IMG/VR virus record: IMGVR_UViG_2534682108_000005
Coordinates: 1-17,046 of that record
Source of the DNA: a virus
Lineage: Duplodnaviria > Heunggongvirae > Uroviricota > Caudoviricetes
Direction: 5' to 3' (one strand)
DNA length: 17,046 nucleotides
In this document: positions 16,716 to 17,046 of the stretch, in pieces
Layout of the letters: each line of letters starts with the position of its first letter
Position numbering within the stretch: the first letter of the stretch is position 1
The notes under the pieces: generated by a model
What the model was told of the DNA's origin: nothing
The model's input: the letters and a program-made list of their open reading frames with translations, nothing else
Database searches by the model: none
Program-made: the position numbers and the translations under genes

Positions 16716-17046
16716 ATGGCATTTAAACACTATGACGTGGTCAGGGCGGCGTCGCCGTCAGACCTTGCGGATGCGCTTGCTCAAAAAATTCGTTAAGGAT
16801 GGCAGCCATACGGCGGGCCGTTTTCTTCGTATACGGATGATGGCGCAGCACTTATTCAGGCGATTGTCGCTGAAGGTGATGTGAGCACACCTGTTGTGGT
16901 AACCAGTGATGATGGTAAAGAGGTGGTTATCAGAACCACCATCGAACCGGAATATTACTATGTTGTCGTCCTTGCCGGTCAGTCCAATGGTATGGCTTTT
17001 GGCGAAGGGCTGCCGTTACCTGAAACCTATGACCGCCCTGAGCCGC
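16716..17046 (+). pseudogene. Start of a DUF1737/SGNH-type esterase-like late gene (NanS-p-like) with an in-frame TAA at codon 27; runs off the window
   Basis: GGGGAGG SD before the ATG at 16716. MAFKHYDVVRAASPSDLADALAQKIR, then TAA at 16794-16796, then the same frame stays open to the window edge (GWQPYGGPFSS...VVVLAGQSNGMAFGEG...). GQSN is SGNH-hydrolase block I. The DUF1737 and NanS-p assignment is from memory. Confidence 0.5.

Follow-up and report, generated by a model that had tools for sequence, protein, structure and literature searches.

A recent nonsense mutation in the prophage sialate O-acetylesterase gene nanS-p, probably copied between Escherichia coli prophages by homologous recombination

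Results

The locus lies in the late region of a defective lambdoid prophage

The window analyzed here, a stretch of 17,046 nucleotides, is 100% identical over its whole length to the minus strand of NZ_CP062876.1 at 1089309-1106354, the chromosome of E. coli O157:H16 Res13-Lact-PEA12-26 (hereafter Res13). The gene order given in that record is a DUF1133 antiterminator-like gene, a small ORF, a DNA methyltransferase gene, three tRNA genes, nanS-p, DUF1378, DUF826, a class II holin and a lysozyme. Annotation combined with tRNA and terminator scans thus places nanS-p in a lambdoid late region, with the antiterminator and tRNAs upstream and the holin and lysozyme genes downstream. The prophage carries no stx genes, and its morphogenesis module is that of a lambda-like siphovirus. 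At the 5' end of the window (about 1-710, minus strand) lies an incomplete integrase fragment beside an IS66-type element, which according to the annotation of NZ_CP062876.1 has cut the integrase gene. Outside the window, at NZ_CP062876.1 1065008-1074787, an internal stop interrupts the gpJ gene, and the genes for the tape measure and gpT are partial. The Res13 prophage that bears the window is therefore defective and already decayed, before the stop in nanS-p described below is counted. Within the window, the RefSeq annotation flags no gene as carrying an internal stop; only the integrase fragment and a partial hypothetical ORF are flagged. The initial annotation counted nanS-p as the second gene of the window disrupted by a nonsense codon, and no annotated internal-stop gene corresponds to the other one. 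The counterpart prophage of JMF1 has internal stops in ydfD and in a DUF977 gene, and both of these genes are intact in the window.

The three tRNA genes (anticodons CAT, TCG and TCT) occupy 15956-16205 on the plus strand, as in Stx-type phages, and no stx genes are found between this cluster and nanS-p. Positions 16315-16512 (+) match the sRNA family STnc100 (RF02076) with 134.6 bits, relative to a gathering score of 47. The terminator scan places one terminator-like hairpin at 16480-16510 (+), closing the STnc100 match, and a second intrinsic-terminator-like hairpin at 16595-16628 (+), between the tRNAs and nanS-p. The STnc100 match is probably a short, terminated leader RNA that precedes the late genes, and from the two hairpins we infer that nanS-p would be read only by antiterminated late transcription. 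Previous work reported that nanS-p is induced by mitomycin C and proposed control by Q from the conserved gene position (PMC10462455). On the opposite strand, 16512-16571 matches AgvB with 53.1 bits, which narrowly misses the gathering score of 56, and AsxR with 45.3 bits, both being prophage anti-sRNA families; a minus-strand terminator-like hairpin lies by this match at 16536-16519.

A nanS-p reading frame is interrupted at codon 27

The Shine-Dalgarno sequence of nanS-p, GGGGAGG, is read from the sequence at 16705-16711 (+), 4 nt before an ATG at 16716. Its duplex with the 3' end of 16S rRNA is valued at -11.2 kcal/mol, which ranks in the top ~1% of random window positions. The first 26 nanS-p codons (16716-16793, +; translation MAFKHYDVVRAASPSDLADALAQKIR) encode the N-terminal half of DUF1737, and the resulting peptide aligns to profile positions 1-23 of 53 in the Pfam DUF1737 model with 16.8 bits, a score that alone is below the cut-off. 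Codon 27 is a TAA at 16794-16796 (+). The description given in the initial annotation, of a frame opened by a strong Shine-Dalgarno sequence and an ATG and ended at this TAA, is reproduced by these readings, as is its statement that the same frame continues to the window edge. Past the TAA, 83 stop-free codons run to that edge (16797-17046, +), and by translation and Pfam they take in the remaining half of DUF1737, which extends to about 16874, then a linker and the first part of the SASA catalytic domain. Translation of this segment yields GWQPYGG at 16797-16817 (+) and the SGNH block I motif GQSN at 16977-16988 (+), which aligns to the AGQSN of NanS (PDB 3pt5) and contains the catalytic serine as codon 90. 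It was also correctly noted that the frame has no ATG from the TAA up to GQSN, since the first is M93 at 16992; three in-frame GTG codons do lie in this interval, at 16881, 16896 and 16923. When the frame is followed beyond the window in the source genome, as had been suggested, 620 codons are read after the TAA until the natural stop, giving a nanS-p frame of 647 codons in total with no second lesion. An open stretch of 620 codons past the TAA far exceeds chance.

What does this frame encode? A Pfam search with an intact allele that is 99.8% identical to the window returns DUF1737 at residues 3-53 (44.4 bits), SASA at residues 83-285 (46 bits) and DUF6645 at residues 496-613 (228 bits), and the continuation in the source genome, taken from the GTG at 16896, matches SASA and DUF6645; the three domains are thus seen in the intact allele and the continuation, and inside the window only DUF1737 and SASA begin. 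Residues 75-394 align to E. coli NanS/YjhS (PDB 3pt5; E = 1e-115), residue 75 being at position 16938, and residues 431-646 align to the C-terminal domain of NanS-p (PDB 6yp6; E = 2e-99). The SGNH blocks are found as GQSN in the window and as QGEND and the SHFSS region in the continuation, aligned to NanS. What had been called an esterase-like frame is, by the Pfam SASA match and the alignment to 3pt5, a true SASA/SGNH sialate O-acetylesterase frame, and the one expected property that it lacks is an uninterrupted reading frame for a protein of ~645 aa, owing to the TAA at codon 27. We assign the region, on its sequence, as the 5' end of nanS-p, the prophage gene for Neu5,9Ac2 O-acetylesterase; by descent it is nanS-p, now in the form of a nonsense allele or pseudogene. 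nanS-p is a known gene of lambdoid and Stx-type prophages (PMC10462455, PMC8065619).

The closest known systems are the NanS-p proteins of 933W (z1466/L0105) and phi24B (vb_24B_21/gp84), with which the Res13 gene shares the DUF1737 - SASA - DUF6645 jelly-roll architecture, the position between Q/tRNA and holin, and GQSN. It differs from both in the TAA at codon 27, such that no full-length protein would be made, and the Res13 prophage differs from phi24B in that it lacks stx and has lambda-like siphovirus morphogenesis rather than the podovirus type. Chromosomal NanS (YjhS, 3pt5) has a homologous catalytic domain, including AGQSN and QGE(N/F)D; however, it has neither DUF1737 nor the C-terminal lectin-like domain and is not prophage-borne. 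The IMG/VR nanS-p relatives have protein identities of 64-95%. In 17 of the 80 IMG/VR relatives (loci L042-L049, L051-L056, L060, L062 and L063), DUF1737 is replaced by a different N-terminal module of ~110 aa (MSDSKWKMLSAMPGEFSV...) with the same esterase behind it, which indicates that the N-terminus is modular and exchangeable.

The TAA replaces an invariant glutamate codon

The initial annotation had suggested aligning the region to intact homologues to see which codon the TAA replaces, and the answer is GAA (Glu27), altered by a single G>T at 16794. The alleles of HCP4S3_I4 and JMF1 differ from the window at one position in 647 nt (99.8% identity), namely G in place of T at 16794; both read GAA and are annotated as a single 647-aa protein. 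Residue 647 is the sole difference between the conceptual Res13 protein and the JMF1 protein. Codon 27 encodes Glu in 63/63 DUF1737-type IMG/VR relatives (GAA in 33, GAG in 30, no stop), and G is the base in each of the 14 exact-context matches from IMG/VR and metagenome contigs. In megablast searches of 5,426 complete E. coli genomes, the G-centered (GAA) 31-mer is found at 68 places in 56 genomes and the T-centered (TAA) 31-mer at 2 places in one genome; a match requires an exact 28-mer within the 31-mer, so every match agrees at the central base. By these comparisons, the TAA is a G>T transversion private to this lineage, in a Glu27 codon that is otherwise invariant. The two intact alleles uphold the view that this is one longer esterase gene and not two, and they favor the first of the explanations listed for the stop, a pseudogene. 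Homologues with a gene boundary at this point, which had been named as counter-evidence, were not encountered, and the downstream frame aligns to the esterase.

One hypothesis holds that readthrough or recoding is programmed at the TAA, or else that the TAA marks where a small upstream gene naturally ends, ahead of an esterase gene that starts with a codon other than ATG. The frame is open across the stop, as this hypothesis would have it, and according to the phi24B preprint DUF1737 proteins in the databases are mostly single-domain, so split architectures exist (bioRxiv 10.64898/2026.04.10.717836). However, the stop falls at residue 27 of the 53-residue DUF1737 (profile position ~24), which is inside the domain and not at its edge, and a stop is present in 0/63 relatives, 0/14 exact-context matches and 0/68 places with the GAA context. 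Conservation is lacking at the downstream GTG codons, every homologue reads continuously through this point, and the adjacent prophage tRNAs, with their anticodons CAT, TCG and TCT, are not suppressors. The stop context is UAA-G; UAA is the least leaky stop codon of E. coli, and readthrough of UAA-G is expected to be negligible. The conservation of Glu27 leads us to reject both programmed readthrough and a natural gene boundary, to which we attach almost no probability; readthrough, which the initial annotation had listed as an option, is excluded as a conserved feature by the confinement of the TAA to one lineage.

Two independent assemblies carry the stop at three loci

An alternative hypothesis is that sequencing or assembly erroneously introduced the T at 16794 into a gene that is truly intact. 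The allele is one base away from intact alleles, the TAA context is carried by one of the 5,426 complete RefSeq genomes, and polishing artifacts are common in repeated prophage segments, all of which could be expected of an error. However, Res13 contains two prophages with this TAA, one near 1.089 Mb (the window) and the other near 0.607 Mb, where the stop lies near 607546 (NZ_CP062876.1 598516-616576, locus position about 9031) and the flanks are diverged; an identical T at two loci with strongly different flanks is not readily explained as an error. The same ATG and TAA are found in CP101800.1 (GCA_023098635.2), an independent and separately assembled E. coli chromosome of 5.05 Mb (extracted locus 2899-2901), on a slightly different synonymous haplotype, and the 587-aa RefSeq product of the TAA allele, WP_251122267.1, is also encoded there. 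Moreover, position 16794 is not within a homopolymer run. Short-read polishing could in principle have homogenized the two Res13 copies, but the independent CP101800.1 argues against an artifact. With the same T at three loci in two independent assemblies, a sequencing error, also among the options listed originally, is very unlikely. A 31-mer from the 3' half of nanS-p matches a third place in NZ_CP062876.1, which may be a third, possibly intact, nanS-p copy.

How did the same stop come to lie in different prophages? The two Res13 copies are heavily diverged upstream of 16593 and then identical for ~2 kb through the gene, save one synonymous site, and such identity between diverged flanks points to recombination or gene conversion between co-resident prophages. 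CP101800.1 differs from the TAA allele of the window by 5 synonymous and 0 non-synonymous changes, and none of the three TAA copies has damage in the frame beyond the stop. We considered whether this pattern reflects purifying selection that continued to act on the frame after the mutation, which is not supported. The rationale for this statement is that the variants 17382T and 18191T, seemingly private to Res13, are present in the nanS-p of other complete genomes, where the gene has no pseudogene flag, and recombination therefore explains the synonymous-only pattern. The TAA has been recombined onto differing pre-existing haplotypes.

Internal start codons downstream of the stop

Could the esterase still be made from within the gene? 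The candidate start at GTG 16881 (Val56) is preceded directly by the SD-like AGGTGAT (16874-16883 with the GTG, +) and stands at the boundary between DUF1737 and the linker. AGGTGAT offers 7 nt complementary to the 3' end of 16S rRNA; the duplex energy is -9.2 kcal/mol, in the top 4.6% of random positions, where the annotated gene starts of the window average -8.5 kcal/mol, and the aligned spacing equals that of the native start. GTG 16896-16898 (Val61, +) is the start chosen in the NZ_CP062876.1 annotation for a 587-aa 'sialate O-acetylesterase'; at -5.2 kcal/mol it is ordinary for random positions and has no SD-like sequence. The same is true of GTG 16923 (Val70), with -5.4 kcal/mol, an ordinary rank and no SD-like sequence. 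The Val56 codon varies, being GTG in some alleles and GTC in others and absent from N-termini of the phi24B/933W type. A conserved internal start giving a natural short isoform was rejected, as the Val56 GTG is not kept among alleles, and GTG 16881 is at best a fortuitous, weak candidate start.

These starts bear on the hypothesis that the gene has lost its head and kept its function, such that ribosomes restart at a GTG after the TAA, with 16881 as the best candidate and 16896 as the RefSeq choice, and produce a ~590-aa esterase that lacks the capsid-binding domain, is free, and serves the host. The AGGTGAT before GTG 16881, with its -9.2 kcal/mol and native-like spacing, is consistent with such a restart, and cleavage of phi24B gp84 has been proposed after about residue 54-57, which is the same boundary (bioRxiv 10.64898/2026.04.10.717836). 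The alignment to NanS begins only at residue 75 and NanS has no DUF1737, the N-terminal module is exchanged in 17/80 IMG/VR relatives, and the downstream frame is intact in the three TAA copies. However, GTG 16881 lies 85 nt beyond the stop, which is far for translational coupling, and both this codon and the SD-like sequence before it follow from codons for Glu-Gly-Asp-Val and are not conserved, while GTG 16896 has no SD-like sequence at all. A young mutation predicts an intact downstream frame equally well, and the differences, all of them synonymous, are found also in the nanS-p of other genomes. For these reasons we consider such a restart unlikely. A product from an internal GTG, if made, would probably be catalytically competent, a prediction based on NanS, which has no DUF1737, and on the 17/80 relatives with another N-terminal module. 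A stronger form of the hypothesis, in which the E27* allele is alive and domesticated, with an esterase freed from the virion via GTG 16881 and spread between prophages and strains as a benefit to the host, is a good deal less probable still.

Discussion

The reading that we prefer, at a probability of about 0.88, is that the TAA is a genuine and recent nonsense mutation, G>T at 16794 (E27*), that was copied between prophages by homologous recombination, and not a recoding signal. In the proposed sequence of events, a single G>T at 16794 would have converted the invariant Glu27 codon GAA to TAA in this lineage, and homologous recombination would then have copied the TAA allele between prophages. 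Translation from ATG 16716 would stop at 26 residues, about halfway through the 53-residue DUF1737, and the rest of the 647-codon frame is undamaged. The full-length protein would thereby be absent and its N-terminal capsid-binding function lost, and the esterase and lectin-like domains would either not be produced or be produced in small amounts from an internal start that arose by chance. The stop most likely abolishes or strongly reduces esterase synthesis. Since Q-modified transcription resists termination, as is established for lambda Q, the polarity of the TAA on the downstream lysis genes should be small. In phi24B gp84, DUF1737 is described as a capsid-decorating, hexon-binding domain, after which cleavage at about residue 54-57 has been proposed (bioRxiv 10.64898/2026.04.10.717836). 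Whatever DUF1737 does in the lambda-like Res13 prophage, we infer that it would be lost.

E27* is ordinary prophage decay, a known kind of feature in a known gene, as nanS-p sits in an already defective prophage. With ordinary pseudogenes of cryptic prophages it has in common a single inactivating point mutation, an accessory late gene and a prophage with further lesions. It differs from them in two ways: the allele has also been copied to another prophage of Res13, and a shorter annotated CDS masks the lesion. RefSeq calls both Res13 copies (IMP69_RS05520 and IMP69_RS03140) as a 587-aa esterase from GTG 16896 without a pseudogene flag, and because this call masks the nonsense lesion, annotation-based counts of functional nanS-p copies will be too high.

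The apparent oddity of a frame that continues past its stop comes down to a simple nonsense allele in an accessory gene that is already well studied, and in itself it matters little. That two prophages of one genome carry the same nonsense allele illustrates, on a small scale, how a defective allele spreads when co-resident lambdoid prophages recombine. Should the truncated enzyme still be expressed, E27* would amount to a naturally occurring separation-of-function variant with respect to the capsid-decoration role newly proposed for DUF1737. Other disrupted forms of the gene occur as well: nanS-p is frameshifted in one copy in the O157:H7 strain 7.1_Anguil, and nanS-p variants bearing IS have been reported (PMC10462455).
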